Source: an uncultured Pseudomonadales bacterium (lineage in GTDB: Bacteria; Patescibacteriota; Microgenomatia; UBA1400; PJMF01). Taken from it: DNA of 64,000 nt. The notes beneath the pieces were generated by a model, which was not told the DNA's origin, did no database searches, and was given only the letters and a program-made list of their open reading frames with translations. The stretch covers positions 15,355 to 79,354 of the forward strand of contig CAZYNM010000006.1 in the NCBI GenBank assembly GCA_964648715.1. The letters run 5' to 3'. Positions 691 to 23,750 of the stretch are shown in pieces. The stretch's first letter is position 1. Each line of letters begins with the position of its first letter. The translations under genes were made by a program, and so were the position numbers.

Positions 691-1496
691 CTGAGTGTCT
701 CCCTGGCAAAAATAACTAACTCTTCGTTGGATAGTGGTTTAATTGAGACATTGCAAAATGACAATCCAGATGCAAAGCGGAGCGCAAGATCATTCAGTTT
801 TTTCAATGCTTCCATCTTAGAGTGTGGATTATGTGTCTGGCACTGCACTGATAGCACAGCATAATGTCGGGTCATCATGAAATTATTTGATGTAATCACA
901 GTATTAAGCTCATTGGTGTACTGTTTAATGAGTGATTCACGTTTCTTGTCTGAGTTTTTATACAGAGAAAATATGTGCTTTGAAAAATCTGTTGTCTTGG
1001 CTTTTTCTTTTTTAACTATGAACTGTATTTGGGTGGGTAAGATATGAATTGTTTGTTTGAGCTTAACAAAAAAGTGTTCTCTATCTTGGTCATTGAGAAG
1101 TGCAATATCATGTGGCTCTATCTCATAAATTCGTGTCACGCTATTTTTACGAATAATGTGATTATCTTGTACTGAAAAATCTATGAAGTAGTTTTCCAGG
1201 TCAGTGTATCGTTTCTCCTTCTTGCTACTTTTGAAGGTAAAAGCTCTCGGTACTATCTTGTAGATAGGTTGGTTATCTATTTTTTGTGTAATAAATGAGA
1301 TAAAAAAGATTATGCCAACAAATAAAGCTGATAGGTAGTAACCCCAATTAAAAAAGTGTAGGCCATAAGTAAATACAGCATACAGTGCTAGAGCTATGAT
1401 GATGCTACCTGTCACCACAAGAACTGTGTCTGTAAAAAACAGACTTCTTAAAATGTGGGTTCTGATGTCGTCTTTATATATTCTTACGCTTTTCAT
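687..1496 (-). CDS. T4SS-associated membrane protein: two N-terminal TM helices followed by a soluble domain. Its position corresponds to VirB3/VirB8-like components.
   Basis: Hydrophobic segment at residues ~25-70. Translationally coupled to the downstream gene (overlapping ATGA). Embedded in the T4SS operon. Confidence 0.4.
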   Translation of the reverse strand: MKSVRIYKDDIRTHILRSLFFTDTVLVVTGSIIIALALYAVFTYGLHFFNWGYYLSALFVGIIFFISFITQKIDNQPIYKIVPRAFTFKSSKKEKRYTDLENYFIDFSVQDNHIIRKNSVTRIYEIEPHDIALLNDQDREHFFVKLKQTIHILPTQIQFIVKKEKAKTTDFSKHIFSLYKNSDKKRESLIKQYTNELNTVITSNNFMMTRHYAVLSVQCQTHNPHSKMEALKKLNDLALRFASGLSFCNVSIKPLSNEELVIFARETLR

Positions 1497-3249
1497 AGTT
1501 TTTATGTGAGTACATACGAATTATTGACTCACTGCCATTCTTAGCCTGGCGTTCTGCAATAACACCTTTAATACCATAGGCTTCATTTCTGGATTGTGAT
1601 AACTCAAGGAAGTTTTTAATCTTGAGTGGTGGACTCGATTTGTTGACGTATGCAAAATCAATTTCTTTACCTTCCTTTTGAGCTTTTTGCATTGCGTTAA
1701 ATGTGTGTGGGTTTGGATTAGTCTTATGAAAGGTGGAAAGATCAATGAAAGGTGCTTTTTCTAGGTTTACATGTTGCAACTTATCTTCAGGAATACCGTC
1801 TTGAACTCCCTCAGTCATTGTTGGGTAGTAGGTGGTTAATCCTGTGCGATTGTCTTCATATTTGTATGCACCGCCAGAGACAGACACGATTCCTTGTTTA
1901 GCGTTCTCGAGAGTTACACCAAAACCCTTGTTTGATAAGTTGGTAGCAAACTCAGAGTCAGGTTTTTTATTTCTAGCTGTATATATAGTAGATTCTTTAA
2001 CAGGCCTCATGTCTGGTAACTGGTCGAGAATGTCTGTTGATTTACTATCCTTTGCAGATGCAAAAAGATTTCTTGTCTTATTTCCCAAAGTTGCACTTAA
2101 ACTTTTACCAAATGCTGCATTCTTGAAGTCTTTGAAACTTGAGCTGATGGGTGTGCCAACTGCTCGAGATGATACTGCTGCAATCATATTGCCAGACATA
2201 GCCGTCCAGACATCACCAAATATCTTGGCTACCAACATATTTACACCACCAAGGAAGAACAAGAAGCCTGTATAGAAAAAAAGTAAGCCAACACTCGGGC
2301 CTTGAGCTTGTAGGATGCTAGCGAAAATATCAGTAGAGATTGCGAAACCAAGGGCAAAAGCTGGTTGTTGAATTAAGAATGTAAACCAGGTTTTAAAGTA
2401 TGTCTGTACGATGGTCTGGGTTCGTTCAGTCAATGCAAAGGGTATGACAATTGGGTAGATTACTCCTAAGAACAGCAAGGTTGCAAAGCGTATTACAAAT
2501 TGATATCCCAGGTATAAGAATCCACACAAGAGAAATAAGAAAGTGATTGCAAATAAGAATATCTGGACGATGAACTTACCGAGTGATCGGAAGATACCAC
2601 CTTGTAAGGCTACCTCAAAGGATGGAATACCAAATTTTTCTGAGTTTTCATTATTTGCGATAGCTTCCTGAGATTTATCAAAATAATCATTGAGAAAGCC
2701 AGTAAACTTCTGTGTTTCGGATATCTGCTTCACTAGTAGATTATTGAACTGAATAGTATAGGAAAGAACTGTTGGTACAGTGATAAATAAGGCTATGACA
2801 ACAATAAAACGAATGGCAAACGATTTAAGTTCATATGTATTGTCACTACCAATTTTTGTTACTGCAAAAACTGCTATAACGATGGCTAAGATTGGAATAG
2901 CTATCTGGTGAAATACGTTTCTATACTTTGTAACACCAGGTATGGTCGAGTCATCTTTTAATTTGATACTGTCAGCAAATGGGTCAGGTGTGTAGAAGAT
3001 AAAACCGCCAAGGAGTGAGTCAAAACCTTCAATAAAGCTTTTTAGTAGGATGATGATGGAAGATGGCTCATTATGTACTGAGAATTCATTACTATATTGA
3101 ACTTGAGGTGGAGGCGTGGGGGTAGGTGCTTCTTCTGCTAAAGCTATATGTGGGACAAATAAAAATGTAACGATGCTTATGAGCATCACAACGATTGTTT
3201 TCATAAAATCGCAGGAAACAATCGGTTGCCTTGATTTAGTTTGTGCCAC
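1474..3249 (-). CDS. VirB6/TrbL-like polytopic inner-membrane T4SS protein with signal peptide and Pro-rich N-terminus.
   Basis: Cleavable-looking signal (MKTIVVMLISIVTFLFVPHIALA), PTPTPPP linker, more than 6 predicted TM helices, 591 aa. Lies between the pilin-like gene and the VirB4-like gene. Confidence 0.55.
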   Translation of the reverse strand: MAQTKSRQPIVSCDFMKTIVVMLISIVTFLFVPHIALAEEAPTPTPPPQVQYSNEFSVHNEPSSIIILLKSFIEGFDSLLGGFIFYTPDPFADSIKLKDDSTIPGVTKYRNVFHQIAIPILAIVIAVFAVTKIGSDNTYELKSFAIRFIVVIALFITVPTVLSYTIQFNNLLVKQISETQKFTGFLNDYFDKSQEAIANNENSEKFGIPSFEVALQGGIFRSLGKFIVQIFLFAITFLFLLCGFLYLGYQFVIRFATLLFLGVIYPIVIPFALTERTQTIVQTYFKTWFTFLIQQPAFALGFAISTDIFASILQAQGPSVGLLFFYTGFLFFLGGVNMLVAKIFGDVWTAMSGNMIAAVSSRAVGTPISSSFKDFKNAAFGKSLSATLGNKTRNLFASAKDSKSTDILDQLPDMRPVKESTIYTARNKKPDSEFATNLSNKGFGVTLENAKQGIVSVSGGAYKYEDNRTGLTTYYPTMTEGVQDGIPEDKLQHVNLEKAPFIDLSTFHKTNPNPHTFNAMQKAQKEGKEIDFAYVNKSSPPLKIKNFLELSQSRNEAYGIKGVIAERQAKNGSESIIRMYSHKNYEKRKNI

Positions 3250-4093: not shown

Positions 4094-6997
4094 CTATTCA
4101 TATCGCAATGCATCCAAAGCCGATATCTTGGTGGCTCTTTTGGCAGGATAAATACCCGTTAAAAGTCCAACAATAACAGATATAGCTAAAATAAGAATAA
4201 CAAAGGTATATGGTATGAAGGTAATATCTAAAAAGCCGTAGCCTTTTGACAACGCATACGTAGAAAGGATAAACGAGGTCGCTTTGCCAGCAGCATAGCC
4301 AACAAATAAGCCACCAACACCACCCATGAAGCCCATGGTCATAGATTCAGTAAGGTAAAGATTTTCTACTTCTTGTGCTTTCATACCAATAGCTTTCATC
4401 ATGCCTACCTCATGTGTACGCTCAAGAAGTGAAACAGTCAAGGTATTTAGCATACCAAGTGCTGCAACTGCAAGAGCAACAACGCCCAAGACACCGAGTA
4501 AAAAGCGGAGAGTCGCAAATAGATTCTCGATTTGTGAGACAGTATCTACTACTGAGGTTGTTTTAAACCCTTGTAACTCAATCTGTTTTCTTGTTTGTGG
4601 TAATACCGACTGATCATTTACAACAATTTTTGCTTGTGAATAGGTTGAGATCCCCATTTGTTTAATATCGCGAAGCGGGACATATAGAATAGGTGTCTTT
4701 GTATCGGGAGTGACCCCAACGATTGTATATTCAATCGGCACTGATTCAATTTTCTTACCATCAGCAAGTAAATCTCCAGTGGCAATAAATGATATTTTAA
4801 ACTTTTTACCAACTCCTGCACTCTCTGCAATACCAAGCACTCTAAGCAAGGATTTATTGACAACAGCTTCACGAGTGATTGTATCTGGTAACTCAATCTT
4901 ACGTGTTGAACCCGTTGCAGATACACTACTTGAACCGTCAATGCTAGTAATATCTATAAATCCGGAGTCAGAGGTCTTTTGGCTTGCAGCAGCAGTTGCG
5001 ACATCTTCAGCGGTTAGTTCATTAGATATGGTAGCCTGTGCAAGTGTAGTAGAAACACCGAGTACCGATCCAGACCCATAGACTTCAGCCAAATTTATTG
5101 TTCGATCAACTTTCATATTCAATTCAGCAAAATATCCCTCTTCAGTTATTTGTTTACCATTACTATCTTTCTTCTCTTTGTATACCATTTTTCCCGACTC
5201 ATCGGTGGTGCGCTCCCAGAGAAGCACTTTACTTTGTAGCCACAAACCAAGTTCTTTGTTATCCGAAGTTTTACCTGCTGAACCAGCTTTATCATCAGGA
5301 TACGAATCTCCCCAATACTCCACTGCATCACTGACCCCTTCAACTCTTCTGGTATATCCAAGAACTTCTCCATTAACGGATGGTTTTGTACGTATACGAA
5401 CATACTCTTCGGGGTCAATAGTGTAGGTGACTTTACCAATTTCATCACCAGCAACGGCTGTTTTAAACTCACGCTGTGTAGAAACTCCAGCTACCATACC
5501 CCGATGTGTTGTGTCTGCATCAGTGATAGGAATGCCCAACTCATTACTAGAAAATATTTTCCCTTCGGCAGGTCGAATTGCTGATTCCAATAAATAATCA
5601 GCCATAACCCCGTACACAGCGACATCACTATTTGAGTTTTGGAAACTTATTTTCCCGACCACACCAACAACAGGTAGCACCTTTGATACACCGGAAATGT
5701 TGCTAAATGAAGCAACTGCTTCATCATTGAGTCTGATATTTGTTGCAACAGCGGGTGAGGCATCTATTTGTCTCATCTCTTCAAGACGTGCAACTCGAGA
5801 AATTACCAATTTTTCAAGACCATAGCCAATCGAAATTAAAAACACTATGGCTGCAACACCGATTGTCATACCGCCTACGGTTATAATGGTACGTGTTTTT
5901 TTCGCAAACATGTTCTTGAGTGATAAATCGATTAAGTCAACTCGTGAGATCGTTTTCTTATCTCGTGTTTCTAGCACTCTAATTAATTTGAAATAAAAGC
6001 TATCAACCACAGGCAAAAATTTTCGCTTTACCACATTCGGTACAAATTTTAATTTAAGTACTCCATCGCTTAATTTCTTGCCTAAATAAACAATCAGTAA
6101 TGATAAGAATCGAACTATCTGCCCAATGTTACTTAGTAAAAATGGTAAAGTTTTGCGAAGTCTAAATATATTGAGGAAAGAGAATAACCAATGAACCCGT
6201 GAAGTACGTTTTTCTTTCTTTTGTAAGCGCGTACCTGCAATACTCATTTCTTGTTTTAAAACAATTCGTTCAAGGAGTAATTGTTTTAATTCTGAAGCCG
6301 ATTTTCCAGCTGTTTCAATATTGCGAACAATGCGTCCATTAAACATTTGGATAATGCTTTTGGCATAATCCACATTGTCAATGTTATGGGTTACCATGAT
6401 GATGGTAGTACCTTTTTCATTCAATTTTCTGAAAAGCTCCATGAGCTCGATACCGCTTTGATAATCTAGATTACCCGTCGGCTCATCAGCAATAATTACT
6501 TTAGGATCAGTGACTAGCGCACGTGCCAAGGCTACTTTTTGCTGCTGACCTGAAGAAAGTTCTGTCGGGAAGTAATCTGCCCAATCGCTTAATCCAACAA
6601 TATGCAGGCAGTCATGCGCTTTAAGTATCGCTTTTTGTTTCTCAACACCCAGTAGTGATAGGGCAAATGCAACATTTTCAACAACGGTGAGCGATTTAAT
6701 CCAGTTCGGTTGCTGGTAAATCATACCTATATTTTTTTTACGAAACTCAGACCTGTCGTCTTCGCTATACACATACAAATTCCAATCAAAAAAACGAGCA
6801 TTACCACTAGTTGGTGCTTCCAACCCTAATATGACATGAAGCATAGTTGACTTACCACAACCAGAGGGACCAAAAACGATTGCAAAATCGCCATCATTAA
6901 TCTCAAGATCAACACCATGCAACACTACAACATCCTGATTTTTAACCTCAAAGGCTTTAACAATTTTTTGCAGTGTAATAATAACTCTTGGTTTCAT
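4094..6997 (-). CDS. MacB-type ABC transporter with ATPase fused to FtsX-like permease and a large extracytoplasmic domain.
   Basis: Walker A GPSGCGKST, signature LSGGQQQKVALARAL, Walker B IIADEPTGNLD at the N-terminus. C-terminal four-TM FtsX-type permease. Confidence 0.85.
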   Translation of the reverse strand: MKPRVIITLQKIVKAFEVKNQDVVVLHGVDLEINDGDFAIVFGPSGCGKSTMLHVILGLEAPTSGNARFFDWNLYVYSEDDRSEFRKKNIGMIYQQPNWIKSLTVVENVAFALSLLGVEKQKAILKAHDCLHIVGLSDWADYFPTELSSGQQQKVALARALVTDPKVIIADEPTGNLDYQSGIELMELFRKLNEKGTTIIMVTHNIDNVDYAKSIIQMFNGRIVRNIETAGKSASELKQLLLERIVLKQEMSIAGTRLQKKEKRTSRVHWLFSFLNIFRLRKTLPFLLSNIGQIVRFLSLLIVYLGKKLSDGVLKLKFVPNVVKRKFLPVVDSFYFKLIRVLETRDKKTISRVDLIDLSLKNMFAKKTRTIITVGGMTIGVAAIVFLISIGYGLEKLVISRVARLEEMRQIDASPAVATNIRLNDEAVASFSNISGVSKVLPVVGVVGKISFQNSNSDVAVYGVMADYLLESAIRPAEGKIFSSNELGIPITDADTTHRGMVAGVSTQREFKTAVAGDEIGKVTYTIDPEEYVRIRTKPSVNGEVLGYTRRVEGVSDAVEYWGDSYPDDKAGSAGKTSDNKELGLWLQSKVLLWERTTDESGKMVYKEKKDSNGKQITEEGYFAELNMKVDRTINLAEVYGSGSVLGVSTTLAQATISNELTAEDVATAAASQKTSDSGFIDITSIDGSSSVSATGSTRKIELPDTITREAVVNKSLLRVLGIAESAGVGKKFKISFIATGDLLADGKKIESVPIEYTIVGVTPDTKTPILYVPLRDIKQMGISTYSQAKIVVNDQSVLPQTRKQIELQGFKTTSVVDTVSQIENLFATLRFLLGVLGVVALAVAALGMLNTLTVSLLERTHEVGMMKAIGMKAQEVENLYLTESMTMGFMGGVGGLFVGYAAGKATSFILSTYALSKGYGFLDITFIPYTFVILILAISVIVGLLTGIYPAKRATKISALDALRYE

Positions 6998-7015: not shown

Positions 7016-10000
7016 TTACTTTAAAATATCCAAAAATCCAAATATATCCGATAAATTACCAACAACCAAATCAAGTGCAGATTCAGTTGATTTTGGTGCA
7101 ATAGTAACGGTATCAATAGACTTACCTGAATTGCCTGCTTTGTCTTTTGAAAGAACTCGCAAGTGGTAGACCTTTGATGGTGTTAGGTCGGAAATTATAA
7201 CCAAATGATTCAAGGTCAAGTTGGTATCTTCTTGTGTTTTTTGAGGATAGTTTTCCCCCGTACCTTCGCCAAACTCAATCTGGGAACTGGCAGGCTCATC
7301 GGTATCCCAAGATACGATCAGTTGTGCACGGGCTTCTTGACCTGCACCAGATACAGGAGGGACTGTCGTTCCTTCAATCTTGAGATTAGATATCTGTGGA
7401 GGCCTGGTGTCTGTAGCCGTAGTAAATTTTTGGCTGTCTGATGAAGCTTCATTACCAATGGCATCTCGACCCTTAACAATCATCAAATAATCGGTTTCTG
7501 AACGTAGTCCTTTCACCAGTAATTTATGTTCACCTTTAACAAGCGCAATATTTACCTCATCACGGGCTGCACTCGTCTCACCTTGAGGATAATAGGTAAT
7601 GATAGAGGAAATCTCGGTATTAGACTGCCAAGTAACTAGTACGGTTGGTTGTGCAGTACCTCGGACTTCTTGGACACGAACATTAGAAATTTTTGGTCTT
7701 GGATAGGTTGTGAAATCAAGAATTGTACCTTCGTACTCTGAATTCTCACTATCGAAAGCATTAATTTTATAAAAATATTTAGTGCCGTCTTCAAGCCCTG
7801 TAAGCTCCATGGTATAGGTAGTTTCGCTGGTTGATGTAGCAATTTCTTTGACACCACCAAAACCGGTGGTTTTACCATAGTAAATCTTTACTTTGCTTGC
7901 ACCTTTGGAAGTGAGTTGAATGATTGCATTACTCAAACCAATATTTTTGGCAGCTACATCTTGCACCGTTGGGGAAGGACTTGTTTTGAATGTTTTTTCT
8001 TCACTTTGTCCCGTATTACCGTCTTCATCTGTCCACTTTGCACGATAATAATAGGTGGTACCCGGAGTAAGATTAGTTAAATTAATCGTATGATCCTTGG
8101 TTTGTGCTGAGTTTGATGGTTCTTCATCAAAATATGAACCAGATTTTGTACCATAGGCGATCTTGCTGTCAGAGTTCCTATCTGTCACCCAAGTGATTTT
8201 GGACTTTTTAGTAGTAATATCTGTTGCTGTTGGACCAGAAGATAATCCTGCGGCTTCAAAATACTTGCCTGTTGGCAAACCTGACACAGTGGATGACACG
8301 GCAGAACAGTTATTAGCACTATCACAAGCCTTTACACAATAATAATAATTCTGCTCGGAAAGACTCGTATCCGAATAGGATGTACCTGCAGTAGATCCTA
8401 TCTGTGTAAATGAAGAAGGCGAACCTGAACAACTTGCATTACTGGTTGATCTAAGTACTTTATAAGAACTAATACCAGCACCAATACTTTCTGGAGCATC
8501 CCATGAAATAGCCAGTTTCCAGTTTGAAGTCGCTTTGATTGAAATATCTGCCACATCTACATTGCGAGGAATACCAGGTGCAGAACCAGTATAGGCAAAA
8601 GTCACACTAGTATAAGTATCATAGTTTATATTTCCCGCTTCATCTTTTGCAACTAAATACAGGGTGTTTGTGCCGGGTTGAGTGGCAAACGCATCTTCTG
8701 CCAATGTATTGGCACCTGCTGCTGTATAGGTACAATTTGCAAGAGTAGGTACTGTGTTGATGGTATAACAGAAGCGTATGTTTCCTGCTTGGCCTGTAAA
8801 TGCTGAAGGATCATCCCAGCTAAAAGCATACGCATTGGTAGTACCATTCTCAGGCGTTACAACGAGATTGCGTGGTGCAGAAGGGGCAGTAGTATTGATT
8901 TTTAACGCATTTGAAACATAGGTATTTGATACATTGCCTGCAGCATCCCAGGTACGCAAATATACTAAGTTTGTACCCTCTGCGATGGCTGCATAGTCGG
9001 GTGTTTCCTGTGTAGCGTATGAACCATCATTCGTCAAAAGATCAGCTACGTCTTGTGTCCCTGTATGACTATCTCCGTACCAGGTACCACTTGTGCCGAT
9101 ACGATATTGCAAGCCTGCAACACCAGAATGGCTATCGCTTGGGCCATCACTGCCAGAGGATGGCCATAAAAAGGTCGTGCTTTCTGTAGCTATATAATCA
9201 CTTGGTACTGATAAAAAGGCAGGGTTAGCGGGGGCAGTATTATCAAATCTAAAATGGAAACTTGCGCTAGAACCTGCATATACATTTCCTGCACCATCTA
9301 TGGCTTTAACATTCAAATAATATGCATCATTGCTGGAAGTAAGCCACGGACTACCACGATATGAAAGTGTAGCAAAGTCTATAGAATTGGTACTTACAAT
9401 GAATTGACAGGTCGTACCAGTAGTTGAAACAGGAGAAGTGCCCAGTAGTCCCTTCGCAGTAGCAGGGTTCCCACTTTCGTCACTGCCCAAATACAAACAA
9501 TAACCAGAGATGCCAGAACCACCTACGTTATCCGCTCCTGCATCCCAAGAAAAATATGGTGCACTGCCATTTGTCCAACCATTGCTACTCATGCTTGCTC
9601 CACCTACTGTTTTTTTCATTATCACATTTGATGCATTGGTTGTTGGTGCAGTAGTATCAGTCGTGAGTCCAATTGCAATGCTCGTTATCGCAGGTAGATC
9701 CGTCCCACCAAATGCCATAATAGCCTTGACTGATATTTTTTGTGAGACGACTGGTAATGCCTGCATGGCTGTAGGAGTAAGCTCGGCTGCTGTGTTTACA
9801 TGCGTCGTGGTATTTGAGGCGGTTGCCCAAGCAGAGCCATCCCAATATTTCCATGCATTGCCACTTTGACAAGTTGCTCCATCATCTGTACAAATTTGAT
9901 ATTTCACCGAAGCATTCCCGCTGGCTGTGACATTGGCGGTAAAAGAATCCCAACTATTGACCTGACTATTACTATAGGCAGAAGTAGTATAGACGCTATA

Positions 10001-11608
10001 TGTACCAGCTTTTGAAAGGGTGAAATCATCAAGTTTGACGGTTTTACCTTGCTTGACCAATACACCATAGTCTCGTGATTCATTGGCTCCAGTAACGGTT
10101 CCTGATAGTTTCCACCAGCCAGAACCTATATTGGTGTATGTAGTAGAAACAACAGCCCCATTATAATACAACTGAGCAATAGAAGTGCTGACGGTACCGC
10201 CTTCGTTACCTGCTGTTGTGTCATACACAAAAACGGAAAAATCGAGCGAGTCGGCTGCGCCGACATTTATAGATTGTGTTACCTTAGCATCAGCTAAGCT
10301 ACCTACAGCTATGGTATTACCACCACCGTTTCTGCCAGATGAAGATGAGTAAGATTGAGAGATAGCTACGGAATCACTGGCGCACCTAAAACCGAAGTAA
10401 CTGCTCCGAGTTGCAGGTGTATAATTCAAAAAGAGTGAGAATGCTCCTGTATTTGAGGTATTACCCCAATCGCCACCGCGCAGGAAACCGTATAAAGTAG
10501 AAGCAGCAGAGCCGCTATTATGATAAATACGTCCCACACCATGGGTTGCATTATAGGTATTATTAGCAGGTCGGACTAAGTCATAAGAAAGGCTTCCATA
10601 GCTCGTTAAAGCTGTAAATTCCCGCCAGTTAAAACCACTCTGGCCACTCACATCAGGCTGATTAGCTTCCGTGATGGTGTCGCTGTTCCATTCCCAGACG
10701 TTTCCTGCTATATCCCAGATATATGCACCATTTGAGAGTGCTAGTACTCTTTTTTGATTACCAACACTTCCAGACGTATTGTTACTTGTATTTGTTGGAC
10801 AACCAGAAGGCGCCTCGGTACTGCCTCCTGAGTCGGTATAGGCACAAGCGTTGTTTCCTGTATCAGTAGAAGATGCCTGTAATGATTGTGCCGGTGAATT
10901 ATCGTTATGACCAGCAAACAAATAACCGCTTCCCACACTACCCCCTGTCCAGTTGCCTGTTTGTGCTTCTGCATTGCGTGCAATGGTCATCCATTCGGCA
11001 TTGGTGATAAGATGGTAGCCGCTACCAAGTGCAGAACAAGCCTCTATTGCATCAAAATCTGTATTGTTTTGTGAAATTCGCACCCATGGTCTTCCAGAAG
11101 GAATTGATCGTGCTTGATATCTAGTCTGTGAATTCGCGCCTGCCCAGCCATCGGCTGAGCCAGCACCTCCATCAGCCACTACACTATTGGTATTGGTATC
11201 CCATGCTTTTGCCTCGTACTTCATAACCAAGAAATTGGAAGTGCTGTAGGTGGCATTACCAGGAACCTCCACCCATCCTGTGGCAGGCACCGAAGAAACT
11301 GACCAGGAAGAATTGTCTGAGCTAAAAGATGGATTGGTAATTTTATTTGCTCCTGTGATTGGCCTTGCTCCAGAATTATCTACCGCAACAAGGGTATTGT
11401 CATAGGTATAACTACCAGCATTGGCAGTATTAAATGTCCAGGTTTTGGTAGTATCGTTGGCTGCAAAAATACTGGGTAAGTGAACAGTGGTAAGGTAGGT
11501 AGCACCTGCAAAACCGAAGATCATGAAAAGAATCGCAGCCAGATTAAACTGGAAACGCGAGTAATGATAGCGCTTTTCAAAAAAATATCTATATATGGTT
11601 TTATACAT
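7016..11608 (-). CDS. 1530-aa cell-surface protein: N-terminal signal anchor, FGE-sulfatase/C-type-lectin-fold domain (aa ~150-412) carrying the DGR variable repeat, then ~1100 aa of fibronectin-III/Ig-like repeats. This is the DGR target protein.
   Basis: Motifs IWDIAGNVWEWNSD and LRGGDWGN...GFRCAS typical of the FGE-sulfatase fold. Repetitive T/S/G-rich Fn3-like modules. VR at 10377-10488 lies in this ORF. Confidence 0.8.
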   Translation of the reverse strand: MYKTIYRYFFEKRYHYSRFQFNLAAILFMIFGFAGATYLTTVHLPSIFAANDTTKTWTFNTANAGSYTYDNTLVAVDNSGARPITGANKITNPSFSSDNSSWSVSSVPATGWVEVPGNATYSTSNFLVMKYEAKAWDTNTNSVVADGGAGSADGWAGANSQTRYQARSIPSGRPWVRISQNNTDFDAIEACSALGSGYHLITNAEWMTIARNAEAQTGNWTGGSVGSGYLFAGHNDNSPAQSLQASSTDTGNNACAYTDSGGSTEAPSGCPTNTSNNTSGSVGNQKRVLALSNGAYIWDIAGNVWEWNSDTITEANQPDVSGQSGFNWREFTALTSYGSLSYDLVRPANNTYNATHGVGRIYHNSGSAASTLYGFLRGGDWGNTSNTGAFSLFLNYTPATRSSYFGFRCASDSVAISQSYSSSSGRNGGGNTIAVGSLADAKVTQSINVGAADSLDFSVFVYDTTAGNEGGTVSTSIAQLYYNGAVVSTTYTNIGSGWWKLSGTVTGANESRDYGVLVKQGKTVKLDDFTLSKAGTYSVYTTSAYSNSQVNSWDSFTANVTASGNASVKYQICTDDGATCQSGNAWKYWDGSAWATASNTTTHVNTAAELTPTAMQALPVVSQKISVKAIMAFGGTDLPAITSIAIGLTTDTTAPTTNASNVIMKKTVGGASMSSNGWTNGSAPYFSWDAGADNVGGSGISGYCLYLGSDESGNPATAKGLLGTSPVSTTGTTCQFIVSTNSIDFATLSYRGSPWLTSSNDAYYLNVKAIDGAGNVYAGSSASFHFRFDNTAPANPAFLSVPSDYIATESTTFLWPSSGSDGPSDSHSGVAGLQYRIGTSGTWYGDSHTGTQDVADLLTNDGSYATQETPDYAAIAEGTNLVYLRTWDAAGNVSNTYVSNALKINTTAPSAPRNLVVTPENGTTNAYAFSWDDPSAFTGQAGNIRFCYTINTVPTLANCTYTAAGANTLAEDAFATQPGTNTLYLVAKDEAGNINYDTYTSVTFAYTGSAPGIPRNVDVADISIKATSNWKLAISWDAPESIGAGISSYKVLRSTSNASCSGSPSSFTQIGSTAGTSYSDTSLSEQNYYYCVKACDSANNCSAVSSTVSGLPTGKYFEAAGLSSGPTATDITTKKSKITWVTDRNSDSKIAYGTKSGSYFDEEPSNSAQTKDHTINLTNLTPGTTYYYRAKWTDEDGNTGQSEEKTFKTSPSPTVQDVAAKNIGLSNAIIQLTSKGASKVKIYYGKTTGFGGVKEIATSTSETTYTMELTGLEDGTKYFYKINAFDSENSEYEGTILDFTTYPRPKISNVRVQEVRGTAQPTVLVTWQSNTEISSIITYYPQGETSAARDEVNIALVKGEHKLLVKGLRSETDYLMIVKGRDAIGNEASSDSQKFTTATDTRPPQISNLKIEGTTVPPVSGAGQEARAQLIVSWDTDEPASSQIEFGEGTGENYPQKTQEDTNLTLNHLVIISDLTPSKVYHLRVLSKDKAGNSGKSIDTVTIAPKSTESALDLVVGNLSDIFGFLDILK
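10377..10488 (-). repeat. DGR variable repeat (VR), encoding aa ~374-411 (GFLRGGDWGNTSNTGAFSLFLNYTPATRSSYFGFRCAS) of the target protein.
   Basis: 112-bp match to 13692-13803 with 14 mismatches, every one at a TR adenine on the coding (minus) strand. TR AAC/AAT codons correspond to S/S/Y and other residues in the VR. Confidence 0.8.
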
Positions 11609-11775
11609 GACAGGTTTTCATAAATCCAATACACCAGCCCATTGGCTAGTCTACATATCCATAATACAGGAATCGTTCCTTACATTTCAACTGATAAAGT
11701 ATGTCAAATTTCGTATTCTAGAATTCGTATTCTAGAATGGAGTTTTATATTACATTTTGTTATACTAAACTTATT

Positions 11776-12069
11776 ATGAACATCAAAAGTATCCAAAATT
11801 TAGCTCTCCCCATACTAAGAAAATACAATGTAACTAAAGCAGCACTCTTTGGTTCTGCTGTCCGTGGAGAAATGAATGATCATAGTGACATTGACTTGTT
11901 AGTTGAATTGCCAACAGATGTTCATGGATTTGAGTATGTGGACTTAAAAGTTGGCTTACAAGAAGATTTAGAATCAACATTTGGGAAAAATGTGGATCTA
12001 GTCGAGTATAAACTTATTAAAGAATCACTTAAAAGCTATATTTTACCTGAACAGGTTAGAATTTTATAA
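11776..12069 (+). CDS. mnt: MNT-type nucleotidyltransferase antitoxin (minimal nucleotidyltransferase).
   Basis: LFGSAVRGEMNDHSDIDLLVEL nucleotidyltransferase motif. Directly followed by the HepT gene with a 1-nt gap. Likely start is MNIKS at 11776, not the upstream ATG at 11737. Confidence 0.75.
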   Translation: MNIKSIQNLALPILRKYNVTKAALFGSAVRGEMNDHSDIDLLVELPTDVHGFEYVDLKVGLQEDLESTFGKNVDLVEYKLIKESLKSYILPEQVRIL

Positions 12070-12417
12070 ATGGAAAAGAACCCTTTAATTTATTTAGATG
12101 ATATATTATTCTCTATTACCTTAATAGAAGGATATATCACTGATGTGGCACAAGAAGAATTCCTTGGCAGCTACGATATTCAAGATAAGGTCTTGAGAAG
12201 ACTAGAGATAATTGCAGAAGCGGCTAAGAAGCTTCCCATAGAAATAAGAAGCAATAATCCTCAAGTTCCATGGAAAAGTATAATCGGATTACGAAATATC
12301 ATAGCTCATACCTATGATGAAGTAAATTTAGAAGAGGTTTGGAGTATAGTAACATTGCACCTACCTAGAACTAAGATCGAGCTAGAAAAAATTAAGTCAG
12401 ATACATCAAAAAGGTAG
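12070..12417 (+). CDS. hepT: HepT/DUF86 HEPN-family RNase toxin.
   Basis: GLRNIIAHTYDEV matches the HEPN Rx4HxY motif. 115 aa. Paired with the MNT gene upstream. Confidence 0.75.
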   Translation: MEKNPLIYLDDILFSITLIEGYITDVAQEEFLGSYDIQDKVLRRLEIIAEAAKKLPIEIRSNNPQVPWKSIIGLRNIIAHTYDEVNLEEVWSIVTLHLPRTKIELEKIKSDTSKR

Positions 12418-13563
12418 TCTTAACTGCTCACATTTGATATCTTTTCTACGGATATTATCCAGCATTCGTTCACGCTTTTGCGAAAACAAAAAGCTTTGCA
12501 AATGATAAGCGTTGGCATGCTGAATGTGCCCCACGAATGAGTTGCAGGTCAACTGTAGTTTTTCTTTGGTAAACCTATCTTCACGTACCATGCGCTTTCT
12601 TTTTTCCATCCGCTTCTGAAATCTACGAAGCGTCTTACCTCGTATAAGGATATGATCATAAAAAATTCGATATCCCACAAATGGGACACCAAAGGATACA
12701 TTTTGAATAAAAACTTTTTCAGGGTGCAGTGTGAGCTTTAGGTTGTCTTCTAAAAATTGACCGAGGGTGTTTCTTACTTTAATCAAATGCTCTTTGTCAG
12801 GATGAATAATCAGAAAATCATCCATGTATCTTGCGTACCACTTTTCTTTGAGAGTATGTTTTACATACTGATCAAGCTCATTTAAATAGACATTGGCAAA
12901 AAGTTGGCTCGTGAGATTACCTATTGGAATGCCCTTTCTCTCTTGCAGATTTACGACGTGCTCAGGTAAATTTTTGAGTTGCCCATTGTTTTTATACACT
13001 TTGTGATTAGTGACTATGGTTGTAATAAGTTTTAAAATTTCTGGGTCAGTAATTTTCTCTTGTAAAATTGTAATGAGTACATCCCAAGAGATACTTTGAA
13101 AATACTTTCTAATATCACACTTTAAATAGTAGATTGGAGTTTGAGCACCATTTTTGCAACGAGCTGCCATCAAAAATTTTTTGACCCGTTGCAAACCAAA
13201 ATGAGTGCCTTTCCCCTTACGACACGCATACGAGTCATAAATGAAGTCTTTATCAAGTCTCGGTTCAATCAAGTTAACAAGTGAGCGGTGAACAATCCTA
13301 TCTCTAAAATTAGGAGCAGCTATATGCCTCTTCTTGGGATCAGTTACAACAAAATACATATATGGCTTTGGTATATATTTTCCTGACCGGAGAAGATATT
13401 GAAGGAGGCATATATGATCTTCCAAGTTAAAATCATAGGAAAGGGCAACTGGCTTAGAACGCTTACCTAAACGCACTTTGTTGTACGCCTTAAATAAAGA
13501 AGCTAAATTTGAAAACTGTATAAAATCTTTCATAAACCTATTTACCCTGCCTTGATTACTCAA
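12406..13563 (-). CDS. Diversity-generating-retroelement reverse transcriptase.
   Basis: RT motifs present, including YMDD (RYMDDFLII) and the motif-4 signature IGNLTSQ (GxxxSQ) characteristic of DGR RTs. Size ~380 aa. Adjacent TR and Avd. Confidence 0.85.
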   Translation of the reverse strand: MSNQGRVNRFMKDFIQFSNLASLFKAYNKVRLGKRSKPVALSYDFNLEDHICLLQYLLRSGKYIPKPYMYFVVTDPKKRHIAAPNFRDRIVHRSLVNLIEPRLDKDFIYDSYACRKGKGTHFGLQRVKKFLMAARCKNGAQTPIYYLKCDIRKYFQSISWDVLITILQEKITDPEILKLITTIVTNHKVYKNNGQLKNLPEHVVNLQERKGIPIGNLTSQLFANVYLNELDQYVKHTLKEKWYARYMDDFLIIHPDKEHLIKVRNTLGQFLEDNLKLTLHPEKVFIQNVSFGVPFVGYRIFYDHILIRGKTLRRFQKRMEKRKRMVREDRFTKEKLQLTCNSFVGHIQHANAYHLQSFLFSQKRERMLDNIRRKDIKCEQLRLPF

Positions 13564-13691
13564 GGCAGGAATACAGGTGTTTTGTTTGCCCGTCTGAAAA
13601 AAATAAAACGGGCAGGAAATGAATATTGTGATCTATGAATCCGGAATGCATGTCCGTAAACATGCACTGCTCATTCTGGCGTCATTGATCG

Positions 13692-13803
13692 CTGGCGCAC
13701 CTAAAACCGATGTTATTGTTCCGATTTGTAGGTGTATTATTCAAATTGAGTGTGAATGCTCCTGTATTTGATGTATTATTCCAATTGCCACCGCGCAGGA
13801 AAC
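13692..13803 (-). repeat. DGR template repeat (TR), located between avd and the RT gene.
   Basis: Cognate of the VR at 10377-10488. Adenine-rich on the coding strand with AAC/AAT codons. All mismatches to the VR fall at its adenines. Confidence 0.8.
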
Positions 13804-13846: not shown

Positions 13847-14188
13847 TTACATAGCCTTCATCCAAGCTGTAAGCATTCGGCCGATTTCATTTACCTTTTC
13901 CGCAGCAAATGTGTATTGCTTGATGCTCATCAGTTTTACATCCTTAGTCAACCGTATAAGAATTCGCAAGGTATCAAGATCACGAGAAACTTTTAGTTGT
14001 AATTGTCTTCTAATTTGTAGATCTCGCTCTGTGTTTGCATGAATAATACCGATTAAAACCTGTAATGCTGTGGAGTGGATATGATGACCTAAAATTGGTC
14101 GATGATTGCGTGGGAGTCTGTTTAAGAGATGATAAAGCCAGACCACTAAATCATATGTCTTTTGAAAAATAAGTAGTTTTTCCTCCAT
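13847..14188 (-). CDS. avd: Avd-like accessory variability determinant (four-helix-bundle, 23S rRNA-IVS-protein family).
   Basis: 113 aa, basic, helical, with sequence KTYDLVVWLYHLLNRLPRNHRPILGHHIHSTALQVLIGIIHAN resembling the Avd family. Sits immediately 5' of TR-RT in the canonical avd-TR-RT order. Confidence 0.65.
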   Translation of the reverse strand: MEEKLLIFQKTYDLVVWLYHLLNRLPRNHRPILGHHIHSTALQVLIGIIHANTERDLQIRRQLQLKVSRDLDTLRILIRLTKDVKLMSIKQYTFAAEKVNEIGRMLTAWMKAM

Positions 14189-14450: not shown

Positions 14451-15233
14451 ATGAAGTTATCAGACAACGCACGAGCAAGTCTTGATCGAGTGATTGAAAG
14501 GTTCAAAAGCGGAGACCTTTCACCCATTACAAATATAGCTAGATTTGAGATCCCTGAGGATGCGCCATGTTTTAAATGGTCATTTTCAAATAAAGTACTG
14601 GCATATATCCAATCTGGTGAGCTTGATTGTAGAGGTTTTAATCAGTGGCAAGATGCAGGCCGAAAGGTCAAGAAAGGTAGTAAAGCCGTCTTTATCTTAA
14701 GACCGCGCACAATGAAGTTTGAAAAAGAAGGAGAAGAGCCACAAGTCATCTGTGTGGGTTTTGCACCAATACCAGTATTTGCAGCATCAGGTACAGAAGG
14801 TGAAGGCACTCTGGCAGTGTACCAGCCTAGAGAACTGCCCCCACTGTATGACGTTGCCCAGAGGTTAGGGGTAGAAGTGCGATATATGCCAGTATCCCCC
14901 GATAAGCTAGGAAGCTGTAAGCCAGACGGCACGCGTATTACTATCGGTACAGAAGCCCCAGAAGTGTTTTTTCATGAGCTAGCGCACGCCATACACGCCA
15001 AAATTGAAGGCACGTTAAAATCTGGTCAAGATACTACACAAGAAACCATAGCCGAGTTTACATCTTCCGTGCTAATGGATTTATACGGACTCAAGGACAC
15101 CAGCGGCAACACTTGGCAATATATCAAGATGTACGCAAGTGACCCACTTGAGGCAATAACCAAAGCAATGGCAACAGTCGAAAAAGTATTACAAGTTTTA
15201 CTTGCCCAAGAGAATACAGAGGCTACAGTATAA
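14451..15233 (+). CDS. ardC: ArdC-like antirestriction / zincin protein: N-terminal ssDNA-binding ArdC-N domain plus HExxH metallopeptidase domain.
   Basis: FNQWQDAGRKVKKGSKAVFIL matches the ArdC-N core motif. HELAHAIH is the zinc-binding HExxH motif. Typical conjugative-element gene. Confidence 0.65.
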   Translation: MKLSDNARASLDRVIERFKSGDLSPITNIARFEIPEDAPCFKWSFSNKVLAYIQSGELDCRGFNQWQDAGRKVKKGSKAVFILRPRTMKFEKEGEEPQVICVGFAPIPVFAASGTEGEGTLAVYQPRELPPLYDVAQRLGVEVRYMPVSPDKLGSCKPDGTRITIGTEAPEVFFHELAHAIHAKIEGTLKSGQDTTQETIAEFTSSVLMDLYGLKDTSGNTWQYIKMYASDPLEAITKAMATVEKVLQVLLAQENTEATV

Positions 15234-17096: not shown

Positions 17097-17789
17097 TTAA
17101 TACCTTGGTATAGCCCTAACCACAAATTTAAGTTCGAGATCCTCTAAATCTAACAACTTCATTGCATACTTTTCTATATATTTTCGGAGCTTTTCAGTCT
17201 GGCAGTAAAAAATAATTGTTACAGTATCTTGATCTTTAAAAAATTCAAAGAACTTTTCTACCCTGGAGCGAATTGCAAACCTTGGCATACCATCTTTAAT
17301 AATTTCACAGCTGCACTGCTCAATCTGTCCGTTTTCTTCTCTGATGTATGCAAAGCTCGGTAATAAATCCCGAATGACCCCATTAACAGGGAAGTTGGTT
17401 TGAGTGTAGAATTTAAAGCCAGGCAGGTTTTGGCTTTCAAGATTTAAGTAAATATTTGCAATAGCGATACACTGATCAATAAATTGTTCTGATCTTCGAG
17501 TTTCTTGATACAGTTTTTTAATGTATTCAGATTCCAACCCCTCGGAGGATTTAAGAAACTTAATTCCATTTTTGGAGATAAAGTATATTGCTGGTTTGTT
17601 GATACCTGGTGTTTTCTCGAATATACGGACAATGTAATTTTTAGTAGTGAGGTCTTTAAGCCAGACATTAGTATTTTTAGGGTTTTTGTGTTTCAGGAGA
17701 GATTGTATCTGGATACGGTTTAGGAATCTGAATCTATAGAGAAGGAGAAGTATTTCTTTTTGTTTAGTAGTTATAGTAGGTAGTAGCAT
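17097..17789 (-). CDS. Replication-relaxation-family-like wHTH protein (plasmid/ICE maintenance).
   Basis: N-terminal LT.KQKEILLLLYRFRFLNRIQIQSLL pattern resembling the replication-relaxation family. Sits in the mobile-element context. Confidence 0.35.
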   Translation of the reverse strand: MLLPTITTKQKEILLLLYRFRFLNRIQIQSLLKHKNPKNTNVWLKDLTTKNYIVRIFEKTPGINKPAIYFISKNGIKFLKSSEGLESEYIKKLYQETRRSEQFIDQCIAIANIYLNLESQNLPGFKFYTQTNFPVNGVIRDLLPSFAYIREENGQIEQCSCEIIKDGMPRFAIRSRVEKFFEFFKDQDTVTIIFYCQTEKLRKYIEKYAMKLLDLEDLELKFVVRAIPRY

Positions 17790-19113: not shown

Positions 19114-21702
19114 TTATCTTTCAACTTCAAAAATATTTTTAACCTTATCTTTTAAATGGATATTATCTCCTGAAATTGCTTGATCATTGTTTTTAAGAGC
19201 ATTTCCATATCTCTGACGTGAACAAGTAATTGTTGCATTTATGACATCAGCTGCTGGTTGTAGTTTAAAATTCTCAATCTCTCCACTAAACGTAGCCTGT
19301 GGCTGTAATGCATTGATCTTCATATAAAAATTATACGAAGGGATATTTGCCATCTGTCCTTTTTCTACTTCTGGAGCAAATACAGGCAGTAGCTTGGCTT
19401 CATCCTTTGGACTGGTGGTTCTAAAACAGATCAAAGTACCAGTATTACCGATGATTGTCTCAAGTAAGTCATTCTCTATCTGCACTGTATTTTGATGAGC
19501 CAATATCACACTCAATCTATACTTACGTGCTTCAGAAAGAATCTGTGCAAACGACATAGTAGCAAAGTTCTGAAACTCATCTATATATAAGTAAAAGTCA
19601 GCTCGCTTTTCTTCAAGTATATGTACTCTACGTAAAGCAGTAAGCTGAATTTTGGCAGTTAGAAGCCCTCCTAGGAAGTACGCTGTGTCTTCTCCTATCT
19701 TTCCTTTTGAGAGATTACAGATCAAGATTTTCTTTTCATTCATGATTGTTTCAAAATCAAGTTTGCTCTCAGTTTGATTGAGAATATTTCTAGTCATGCC
19801 TGTAGTAAGAAACCTGCCCAATTTATTGGTAATAGGTGATATCTGCTCTGCACGTTGAAATGAACCTTGCTTATCAAATTCATTCTTCCAGAAAGACTTC
19901 AAGATGTCGTCTTTTAGTAAGCTGGTTACTTTTTTGCGATAGTTGGTATTAGTCAGCAAGTCATAAATAGTAAATAGGGTGGGTTTTTCTTGCTCTAATG
20001 CCGTTAAGATCACGTTTCTCAAAATATGCTCCATTCTTGGTCCTGAATATCTTGGATCATAGAGTTTATGGAAAATTGAGATAAGCGTTGAAGTAATAAA
20101 ATCTTTCTCTCGCTGAAGTTCAACATCAGATAACCCTTTAGGAATCTCTAGTACGTTTAAGCCGATTGGGAACTCAATATCATACGGATTAAAGTAAACT
20201 ACATCTTTGACTCTCTCCTCTGGAATAACACCTAGTAAACGCTCTGCTAAATCGCCATGTGGATCAATAACAGCTAGTCCATTACCTTTTTGCATGTCTT
20301 GATGGATCATGTGCATGAGCAAGGTTGTTTTTCCCGTACCAGTTGCCCCAATGATATAGGCGTGTCTTCTTCGCTCCTCAAGGGTTAAGCCAATCTGTGT
20401 AGTAGTTTCTCCATAGGTATTGGTGGCAAAGGTAATATCTAGCTCAAGGTCATTTTTCTTGAGAGTAATAGGTGCAGGGAGCTTAGGACTTTTTACTTGT
20501 AGTAAGTCCTCTGTTTTAGTTGTTGCTGTATAAGGAAAATGGTACAAGGCAGAAAGCTCATCTACCGACAAGACCATATTATTAGTAAAAAATGGGAACC
20601 GAGTTTTAAATTGTGAGTAGTACAAGTTGTTCAGTGTTTTAGATCTAATAATCTTGGCTAAAGATCGTTTTATCTCAATACCTTGATGTGGTGTGTTAAA
20701 AGTATCGAATGAGGCAGTAATACCTTTGAGGCGTTCAACTGCTTTTTCTTGAGAATGTGTCTGGATATGAATTCTTGCTGTGGTTTCAAATAATGGCTGA
20801 GTGATCTTATTGGCTATACTATTATATAGTTCTGTTTTTGTTGCACCTAGGCCATTAGAAGTATACTTTGCCGTTGATCTGAATAACCAAACAGGAAAGG
20901 CTTCTTGAGTATTACTAACTAGCCATGAAATGACTGTCACAGGTGTTAAAGCAATGAATGCAACGGAACTTGCGAGTAAGTTCACTAGGTATCTACCACT
21001 GTGCGGTTCTATCAGGTCAGTAATGTCTTCATTATTGAGAAATTTTTTAGTGATCGCAGTAATAAAGCTGAGTGTCCCGGAGTGCGTGCTTTCATGAATT
21101 GATGAGCAAACGAACTGAAGGCTGATTACTTCATCAGCTTGTAGCTTGGTCATGTGGGCGGTGAGATATGCCAGTGGGTCATATTGATTTAAGGTTTCTT
21201 GTGAAGCAATCGGATATATAAACAACTTCTTTAACTGTAACTCTCGGATCAAGGAGTATAACTTGGGATTACTTTGTACATGGTCACTAACTTCTTTGAT
21301 CTCAATACCCGGTAAATATGCTAGTAAGGTCTTTCTAATGCTGGGGGTTTCTTCTAGTCCAACACGTAAGATAAATCGAATACCATCATTTTTATTTGAA
21401 ACCAGTTCATAACTAATACTCTTTGTTAAGCCAAGAAGTTTATCTCGCCAATGATGAGGCTTTTCAAGTGAGTGCAAGATCGTAAATAGTTGTGCTGTAG
21501 ATAGTGGTGATTTGAGTGTTCGAGCAGTTGGCTTGATTTCAAGGAATAAATACTTTCTGCTCAAGTATTTTTTAATACAGATGAGTTTGAGGGTGATCTT
21601 AGAGAGTAAATACCCCACCGCAATAGATAGCAAAATATAAATTGTTATTTCAGAGAATAAATAGGGCGGGAATATATTAGATATATCCACAGTATTTAGC
21701 AT
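19114..21702 (-). CDS. T4SS ATPase of the VirD4/TraG coupling-protein type (VirB4/VirD4 superfamily) with N-terminal membrane anchor.
   Basis: Two N-terminal TM helices. Walker A GATGTGKTT followed by VIDPHGDL (close to the coupling-protein DPKGE motif). Walker B YLYIDEFQNF. VILAHQNTVQ motif. Confidence 0.6.
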   Translation of the reverse strand: MLNTVDISNIFPPYLFSEITIYILLSIAVGYLLSKITLKLICIKKYLSRKYLFLEIKPTARTLKSPLSTAQLFTILHSLEKPHHWRDKLLGLTKSISYELVSNKNDGIRFILRVGLEETPSIRKTLLAYLPGIEIKEVSDHVQSNPKLYSLIRELQLKKLFIYPIASQETLNQYDPLAYLTAHMTKLQADEVISLQFVCSSIHESTHSGTLSFITAITKKFLNNEDITDLIEPHSGRYLVNLLASSVAFIALTPVTVISWLVSNTQEAFPVWLFRSTAKYTSNGLGATKTELYNSIANKITQPLFETTARIHIQTHSQEKAVERLKGITASFDTFNTPHQGIEIKRSLAKIIRSKTLNNLYYSQFKTRFPFFTNNMVLSVDELSALYHFPYTATTKTEDLLQVKSPKLPAPITLKKNDLELDITFATNTYGETTTQIGLTLEERRRHAYIIGATGTGKTTLLMHMIHQDMQKGNGLAVIDPHGDLAERLLGVIPEERVKDVVYFNPYDIEFPIGLNVLEIPKGLSDVELQREKDFITSTLISIFHKLYDPRYSGPRMEHILRNVILTALEQEKPTLFTIYDLLTNTNYRKKVTSLLKDDILKSFWKNEFDKQGSFQRAEQISPITNKLGRFLTTGMTRNILNQTESKLDFETIMNEKKILICNLSKGKIGEDTAYFLGGLLTAKIQLTALRRVHILEEKRADFYLYIDEFQNFATMSFAQILSEARKYRLSVILAHQNTVQIENDLLETIIGNTGTLICFRTTSPKDEAKLLPVFAPEVEKGQMANIPSYNFYMKINALQPQATFSGEIENFKLQPAADVINATITCSRQRYGNALKNNDQAISGDNIHLKDKVKNIFEVER

Positions 21703-23739: not shown

Positions 23740-23750
23740 ACGATGGGGCC
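23676..23750 (-). tRNA. tRNA-Glu (anticodon UUC), with encoded CCA.
   Basis: Hand-folded cloverleaf: acceptor GGCCCCA/TGGGGTC, anticodon stem CAGGG/CCCTG with loop TTTTCAT, T-loop TTCGATT, discriminator A, then CCA. Confidence 0.8.

Follow-up and report, generated by a model that had tools for sequence, protein, structure and literature searches.

Diversity-generating retroelements (DGRs) carry a template repeat (TR) from which sequence is transferred, with changes at adenines, to a variable repeat (VR) in a target gene. In the catalogue of Wu et al. (2018, PMC5758913), the great majority of VRs are C-terminal, and internal positions among targets carrying C-type lectin (CLec) domains are represented by one CLec2 protein and one triple-VR CLec1 protein. 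A 2024 survey (PMC11661182), which places 87% of VRs in the target's end section, calls the terminal position a hallmark. This usual position has been explained by the need for non-coding cis elements by Roux et al. (PMC8144416), who also reported that targets in the Candidate Phyla Radiation (CPR) typically have no recognisable transmembrane or other domains. In this article, a DGR is described from a 64,000-nucleotide stretch of contig CAZYNM010000006.1 (assembly GCA_964648715.1; GTDB lineage Patescibacteriota), referred to below as the window, whose target gene encodes a 1530-residue protein with the VR inside an N-proximal domain of predicted CLec fold, followed by a long series of β-sandwich domains. 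This internal layout is real and is conserved in many related CPR bacteria. An earlier note on this DNA, made from the sequence alone, had called the arrangement unusual for DGR targets, which holds for the DGR catalogues (PMC5758913, PMC8144416, PMC11661182), where it is rare, but not for nature, where it is common and belongs to a large conserved CPR family. No description of the target family was found in the DGR literature consulted; earlier cataloguing is possible, since the CPR survey of Paul et al. (2017) and several supplements lay outside that literature, and the family motifs were not found in a portion of the target FASTA file of Roux et al. (2021).

The locus is a canonical chromosomal DGR of the Avd-TR-RT type with an ordinary mechanism. 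Read in gene orientation, which is the reverse strand of the window, it consists of Avd, the TR, a 124-nt spacer, the reverse transcriptase (RT), a toxin-antitoxin pair on the opposite strand, and the target gene; all coordinates below refer to the window and to its reverse strand unless stated otherwise. The Avd accessory protein (113 aa, 13847..14188) matches Pfam bAvd with E 1e-20 and NCBIfam DivGenRetAVD with 91 bits against a cut-off of 80. The RT (385 aa, 12406..13563) matches Pfam RVT_1 with E 1e-22 and contains IGNLTSQ and YMDD in its translation, and was assigned to the DGR clade by these motifs (I/LGxxxSQ, YxDD) together with the Pfam profile. The VR (10373..10488) and the TR (13688..13803), each of 116 nt, form the sole long direct repeat between positions 6000 and 16000, with 87% identity. 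The earlier note had drawn the VR at 10377-10488, within 4 nt of the boundaries given by direct-repeat comparison.

The two repeats differ at 15 of 116 positions, and at 14 of these the TR has an A where the VR has G, T or C; all except one of the 14 affect the first or second base of a codon. The remaining difference, at 10376, has C in the TR and T in the VR and lies within the invariant 3' end of the VR, which resembles an initiation of mutagenic homing (IMH) sequence (GGTTTTAGGTGCGCCAGTGAT, 10373..10393, 21 nt). It is through this base that the IMH of the VR is distinct from the corresponding IMH* of the TR, as is required of a DGR, and the same T/C or a T/A difference recurs in four related loci (L001, L012, L013, L018). 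Within the target reading frame, the VR occupies codons 374-412 and the altered codons are 380-405, placed 24-27% along the protein, so that 1118 residues follow the VR. The templated codons of the TR comprise 11 AAY, five ACA and one ATC, from which no stop codon can be reached by any change of A to another base and which allow approximately 10^17 protein variants. In a 50-member alignment, the AAY-templated positions have an entropy of 3.09 bits, compared with 0.62 bits at other VR positions and 1.24 bits over the whole protein. Neither a second VR nor a second lectin domain is present in the 64,000-nt window.

The target gene (7016..11608) is a single uninterrupted open reading frame (ORF). 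Its product begins with a hydrophobic helix at residues 19-44 (11477..11554), identified by hydropathy and modelled by AlphaFold2 (AF2) as a helix at 18-48, which may be a signal anchor or a long cleavable signal peptide and is the only strongly hydrophobic segment in the protein. An AF2 model of residues 1-1200, built with 103 family sequences and with a mean pLDDT of 87.9, places after this helix a β-rich domain at about 50-145 (11174..11461; pLDDT 93-96), a disordered linker at 149-161, an α/β domain extending to residue 412, and then β-sandwiches. When this model was searched with Foldseek, the leading matches were tandem fibronectin type III (Fn3) and immunoglobulin (Ig) domains of titin, MyBP-C, gp130, LepR and fibronectin (E 1e-18 to 1e-10), and because such tandems dominated the search, the lectin fold was examined with a separate model of residues 45-430 (pLDDT 87, pTM 0.83). 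The best match of that model was TaqVP (5vf4, E 3e-9), followed by the formylglycine-generating enzyme (FGE) 5nxl, PvdO, Mtd (1yu3) and TvpA (2y3c). On the strength of these models, residues of about 160-412 (10373..11131) are assigned the CLec/FGE fold typical of DGR variable proteins. At the level of sequence, the Pfam FGE-sulfatase profile matches residues 158-410 weakly (E 5.6e-4; 20.1 bits, under the cut-off of 23.3), the same annotation is precomputed on many homologues, and a single-sequence search of PDB sequences returned weak matches only (TaqVP, E 0.05; SUMF2, E 0.11).

Residues 413-1505 (7094..10372) are assigned to approximately ten tandem β-sandwich domains of Fn3/Ig-like type, a count that combines AF2 as far as residue 1200 with Pfam for 1200-1505. 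Pfam matches are limited to the last 500 or so residues (about 1010-1505), where Pur_ac_phosph_N scores 68.3 bits (cut-off 30) and fn3 57.4 bits (cut-off 25), and the assignment of 413-1010 comes from predicted structure and Foldseek. The protein ends with a conserved tail of 25 residues, IAPKSTESALDLVVGNLSDIFGFLDILK (7019..7093), which is amphipathic and moderately hydrophobic. The earlier note's central claim, that the VR lies in an internal N-proximal CLec domain at about residues 150-412 with about 1100 residues of Fn3/Ig-like repeats behind it, therefore stands: the fold is recovered in a well-scored model, with established CLec/FGE proteins as its top matches, and the 1118 residues after the VR belong to the same ORF.

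A layout so different from the catalogued one might be produced by error, through a frameshift or a chimeric contig joining a lectin gene to an Fn3 gene. Relatives were sought in one genome per species, giving 407 positive genomes, from which 79 loci were fetched (handles beginning with L). Among the 120 best protein clusters at 90% identity, retrieved with the whole target protein as query, 101 align near full length (46-100% identity, about 1500-1580 aa); these derive from independent assemblies of Roizman-, Davies-, Moran-, Pace- and Shapirobacteria and other Patescibacteria. The lectin domain and the RT occur together in 25 fetched loci, each with Avd and an orthologous RT directly upstream of the target and, where the contig reaches that far, with a MacB-type ATP-binding cassette (ABC) gene downstream. 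In 24 of these 25 loci, the same internal position is occupied by an A-biased TR/VR pair of 117-125 nt; the exception is L003, which is masked by Ns. When the window is taken together with these 24 loci, an uninterrupted ORF of about 1510-1580 aa, with 1116-1163 residues after the VR, is found in 18 of the 25, that is, in the window and 17 related loci.

The evidence in favour of such an error comes from five relatives (L012, L022, L023, L029 and L047), in which the reading frame is interrupted within the VR, with gene callers predicting a lectin protein of about 400 aa and an Fn3 protein of about 1130 aa that begins with out-of-frame VR sequence. In three of the five, the break is an indel of 1-2 nt relative to the TR (e.g. 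L022:11170-11286), while L029 has TGA at a Trp codon in both TR and VR, and L047 carries TAA (TR) and TAG (VR) in addition to a 2-nt deletion. These breaks could be real off-states, pseudogenes, or consensus artefacts of a hypervariable site. Their position, however, is within the VR and not at a domain boundary, and with the intact ORF in the window and most relatives, a spurious fusion of two genes, which the earlier note had named as a way for its claim to fail, is hardly credible.

Because the VR is internal, its IMH lies in coding sequence, where it encodes the invariant strand GFRCASD. A further element past the VR is coding in most relatives: a GC-rich hairpin of 5-8 bp with a 3-nt, mostly GNA, loop, 34-36 nt past the IMH (e.g. 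L008, L023), encoded within the linker SSSSGR(E/A)AAGG, the equivalent position in the window being about 10320-10340. Its stem variants include GGCCGC-GAA-GCGGCC, GGTCGC-GAA-GCGACC, CCGGC-CGC-GCCGG and CTGGCC-GGCA-GGCCAG, the second being a compensated variant of the first through a synonymous Gly change and an Ala-to-Thr change. The DNA mini-hairpin d(GCGAAGC) is very stable. Since two length classes pair in different registers, there is no single consensus hairpin, and each locus was instead assessed by resampling synonymous codons according to the usage of its own gene; the observed hairpin was reached in <5% of resamples in 14 of 25 loci, which, given the phylogenetic relatedness of the hairpin loci, is not an independent count. 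In the window copy, there is no significant downstream hairpin (resampling p = 0.33; folding z = -0.36), so that the GC-rich downstream element is not universal in the family. The nearest relatives (L001, L013, L018) likewise have no hairpin, yet these and the window display clean adenine-specific differences. Efficient homing in phage BPP-1 requires GC stems of 7-10 bp with GRNA loops, located 4-34 bp from the VR (Guo et al., PMC3240598), and the downstream hairpin is regarded there as affecting homing efficiency and is not considered universal. The family thus offers a large natural counter-example to the C-terminal-VR rule based on non-coding cis signals (PMC8144416), and as some apparently active members are without the hairpin while most have it, the target-site needs of DGRs become testable across natural variants.

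The missing hairpin also bears on whether the cassette in the window is a relic in which the differences between TR and VR are fossil. An MNT/HepT pair has been inserted between the RT and the target, and decay is seen in some relatives: L020 is decayed, and L021 and L024 retain the lectin domain but have no DGR within 10 kb and a degraded VR motif. Opposed to this are the intact RT, Avd and TR of the window, the confinement of all 14 mutagenic differences to adenines, with no drift elsewhere in the TR and VR except at the IMH base, and the pattern in the closest relatives: the TRs of the window, L013 and L018 are near-identical, whereas their VRs differ at TR-adenine positions. Conserved TRs combined with VRs that diverge between species give indirect support to ongoing mutagenic retrohoming, and an inactive cassette appears quite improbable.

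What the DGR diversifies becomes clearer from relatives in which the lectin domain is replaced. About 45 of the fetched loci, mostly from Saccharibacteria, have neither lectin nor DGR and keep the region from residue 450-650 or so to the end together with the ABC gene. The complete lectin-less proteins often begin with a hydrophobic helix, in a subset with a (R/K)WQFNLF motif, and continue with 360-1330 N-proximal residues unrelated to the lectin before the common stalk and tail. The tail follows the consensus I-(T/I)-(P/G)-(K/R)-A-x-D-x-x-L-x-(L/I)-(V/I)-x-x-L-x-x-x-F-G-F with or without a lectin, and no part of the family is better conserved than the C-terminal Fn3 domains (0.9 bits). An exhaustive search of 1.84 billion representatives with the post-VR region gave 1433 proteins at E <= 1e-30, and among the best 150 of these, essentially all matches reach the last residues of proteins of about 1300-4400 aa. 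Judged by these sequence comparisons, the lectin belongs to a set of several alternative N-proximal heads that sit on the conserved C-terminal base, and is the sole head under DGR control. As stalk, tail and ABC gene remain constant while the N-proximal parts differ, the head is therefore viewed as the exchangeable, specificity-determining part, and the conserved tail as a candidate docking or sorting element.

Two further observations concern the heads. Some N-proximal parts in the class L027-L079 (e.g. L055, L071, L040) look LamG-like or β-propeller-like by eye only. In the CPR, many homologues of the lectin domain, with about 40-55% identity, are proteins of about 400-560 aa that combine a prepilin-type methylation motif (PF07963) with an FGE-type lectin domain, which ends the protein in all four cases checked singly; they resemble pilin-like proteins whose tip may be DGR-variable.

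Wholesale replacement of the N-proximal head between lineages is also what would be expected under antagonistic selection, and receptor escape has been raised for cellular DGR targets generally by Roux et al. (PMC8144416). The target would then be a surface protein exploited by phages or competitors, and the DGR would vary its lectin surface so as to evade recognition. In every solved DGR variable protein (Mtd, TvpA, TaqVP), however, the variable surface of the CLec domain is the binding site itself, and no feature of the window ties the locus to a phage. An evasive role is accordingly given long odds.

The position of the variable head relative to the membrane depends on the fate of the N-terminal helix. 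The target protein is presumably exported, because its basic N-terminus is followed by a hydrophobic helix. The flanks of this helix are conserved in relatives with and without the lectin, with the motif (R/K)xQFNL preceding the helix and (I/V/L)xA following. The latter takes the form IFA|A in the window, VFA|L in the consensus, and IFA|E, INA|D or LYA|A elsewhere, a small-x-Ala motif that looks like a signal-peptidase I site. If the helix is a cleaved signal peptide, the head would be distal; if it is an uncleaved anchor, the head would be membrane-proximal. A long stalk bearing a variable tip, one of two topologies put forward in the earlier note, is plausible. A prepilin-type N-terminus of the target was considered and rejected, the protein lacking both Gly at -1 and Glu at +5.

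Directly beyond the C-terminal end, 18 nt past the target stop, begins a fused MacB-type ABC transporter gene (967 aa, 4094..6997), in which the ABC ATPase, the MacB periplasmic core (MacB_PCD) and the FtsX permease all exceed their Pfam cut-offs. NCBIfam was also run, and as the protein misses the MacB equivalog cut-off (234 versus 966 bits), it is of the MacB family type and not an orthologue of E. coli MacB. An ABC ATPase gene begins about 10-90 nt past the stalk gene in approximately 72 of the 79 loci. A homologue was also looked for beside the MacB systems of Southlakia epibionticum in Tn-seq tables (PMC10633639), where no giant gene precedes the ABC genes and SEML1_0890 is only 588 bp.

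These features admit a membrane-proximal sensor, in which the anchor stays uncleaved, the lectin sits by the membrane and the Fn3 chain runs outward or along the surface, so that the head would bind ligands that reach the membrane or regulate MacB. The long hydrophobic helix at residues 19-44 behind a positively charged N-terminus, the conserved (R/K)xQFNL motif before it, and the adjacent gene for MacB, which is also a membrane machine, are in keeping with such a sensor. Against it stand the small-x-Ala motif, which both classes of relatives conserve behind the helix, and the C-terminal domains and tail, whose status as the most conserved part fits a docking end; moreover, a hypervariable binding surface buried beneath some 1100 residues of stalk is hard to rationalise. 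The sensor is considered rather unlikely.

The reading preferred here, to which a probability of roughly 0.6 is given, is that a canonical DGR varies the N-proximal CLec head of an exported adhesin or receptor with a cleaved signal, C-terminal docking and a distal lectin. Adenine-specific mutagenic retrohoming would rewrite about 17 codons on the ligand-binding face of the CLec/FGE domain, and the long signal at the N-terminus would be removed by cleavage at the conserved (I/V/L)-x-A motif. The C-terminus, which is conserved, may contact conserved cell components and fix the protein to the envelope, perhaps via the periplasmic domain of MacB. As in Mtd, TvpA and TaqVP, the variable lectin surface would bind a ligand from outside the cell, and its place at the free distal end would let the cell change what it binds, be it a host cell, a glycan or a particle.

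Several observations weigh against this reading. The hydrophobic stretch of 22-26 residues is longer than usual for a signal peptide and more typical of an uncleaved anchor, and an uncleaved helix would put the lectin about 100 residues from the membrane, leaving no distal tip. Neither LPXTG nor any other recognised C-terminal sorting signal is present in the target protein, and a transmembrane or sorting signal at its C-terminus was rejected, the mean hydropathy of the tail (1.48) being under the transmembrane threshold used. The link between MacB and the stalk protein consists of synteny, the support for current DGR activity is indirect, the target gene is broken inside the VR in five of 25 relatives, and the window copy has no significant downstream hairpin.

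A broader proposal, advanced as speculation and doubtful, is that the CPR share an undescribed envelope apparatus made of a giant β-sandwich protein with a docking helix and a dedicated MacB-type motor. Its N-proximal head, recognising a host or partner, would be swappable between lineages and, in those of Microgenomates type, controlled by a DGR whose retrohoming signals (IMH and hairpin) lie in coding sequence, and VR frameshifts or stops would work as an on/off switch by which the entire stalk is lost. If this is true, these episymbionts would gain programmable attachment specificity through the DGR-controlled head. In any case, the DGR marks which part of a widespread, uncharacterised module of CPR envelope protein and ABC transporter is hypermutated by the cell, and the hypermutated head is the best available pointer to the contact of this module with the outside world.

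The remaining features of the region surround these genes. The spacer between TR and RT (13564..13687) contains, in order, the CGCCAGAAYGAG motif, a covarying hairpin GCATGT-TTACGG-ACATGC, GATCAC, a second, variable hairpin, and AAACATAAxGCCTGTATT. In an alignment of 22 loci, the loop TTACGGA of the first hairpin is kept and compensatory changes occur at 11 of 14 predicted pairs, and the spacer probably represents the structured 3' portion of the DGR RNA. A search of Rfam at gathering thresholds returned only four tRNAs, with no DGR-RNA family and none matching the spacer, and a scan for promoters and terminators gave signals at or below chance level. The MNT/HepT toxin-antitoxin pair (11737..12417, forward strand; Pfam NTP_transf_2 E 4e-14, HepT-like E 7e-25), situated between RT and target, is confined, among the related loci compared, to the window and its closest relative L018.

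Genes of conjugation or mobile-element type are found around the locus (1474-3249, 14451-15233, 17097-17789, 19114-21702 and 22168-23750), including a TrbL/VirB6-like gene with a weak match, genes for ArdC-N-like and Replic_Relax proteins, a coupling ATPase similar to VirD4/TraG, and a large serine recombinase that ends by a tRNA gene. Synteny of the VirB6-like gene and its neighbours is limited to six loci. As for taxonomy, contigs L001, L004, L012, L018, L021 and others, from automated third-party assemblies, carry a CPR-type locus under the titles "uncultured Gammaproteobacteria/Pseudomonadales bacterium", which are probably mislabels.

Compared with systems already described, the target shares its order of parts with Gram-positive surface adhesins, namely an N-terminal export signal, a binding domain and a long β-sandwich stalk, but differs from them in having no LPXTG or known sorting motif and in ending with a conserved amphipathic helix next to a MacB-type gene. 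A sortase-anchored adhesin, recognised by LPXTG, a hydrophobic segment and a basic tail, was accordingly rejected as a model. The neighbouring gene has the same combination of ATPase, MacB core and FtsX as MacB/FtsEX-type transporters that act on extracytoplasmic partners, and lies beside a large extracytoplasmic protein; to our knowledge, no partner resembling the giant stalk protein has been described for these transporters.

With the DGR of Bordetella phage BPP-1 (Mtd, Avd, bRT), the locus shares the same components and the adenine-specific transfer from TR to VR, and Mtd (1yu3) is a structural match to its lectin domain. The BPP-1 element is phage-borne, whereas the element in the window is cellular, with the order Avd-TR-RT-target. 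The hairpin past the VR of BPP-1 resembles the GC-rich hairpin of the relatives (PMC3240598), but that of the relatives is situated within the ORF, at +34-36 nt, and has a GNA-type loop of 3 nt, and the window has none. The internal-VR targets listed by Wu et al. (Ig1/Ig2, one CLec2 and one triple-VR CLec1; PMC5758913) have a non-C-terminal VR as here, and in both cases the internal position means that the IMH must suit the coding sequence. Most of those targets are phage tail-fibre-like, with a VR domain, reinterpreted in PMC8144416, that is no recognised CLec, whereas the VR of the window lies in a clear FGE-type CLec domain of a cellular envelope protein that belongs to a large CPR family.

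The target is also close to the FGE-subtype CLec proteins TaqVP of Thermus aquaticus (5VF4) and TvpA of Treponema denticola (2Y3C), which have the same predicted fold (Foldseek E 3e-9 and 1e-3). In these proteins and in the target alike, the VR forms the last 40 or so residues of the CLec domain, ends in a strand of the G-F/L-R-C type and is AAY-templated. In TaqVP and TvpA, the CLec domain ends the protein, whereas in the target 1118 residues follow and the IMH is coding. Set against all of these systems, the DGR mechanism is known, and what is new is the architecture of the target, with its implications for where cis elements can lie and for a conserved envelope module of the CPR.

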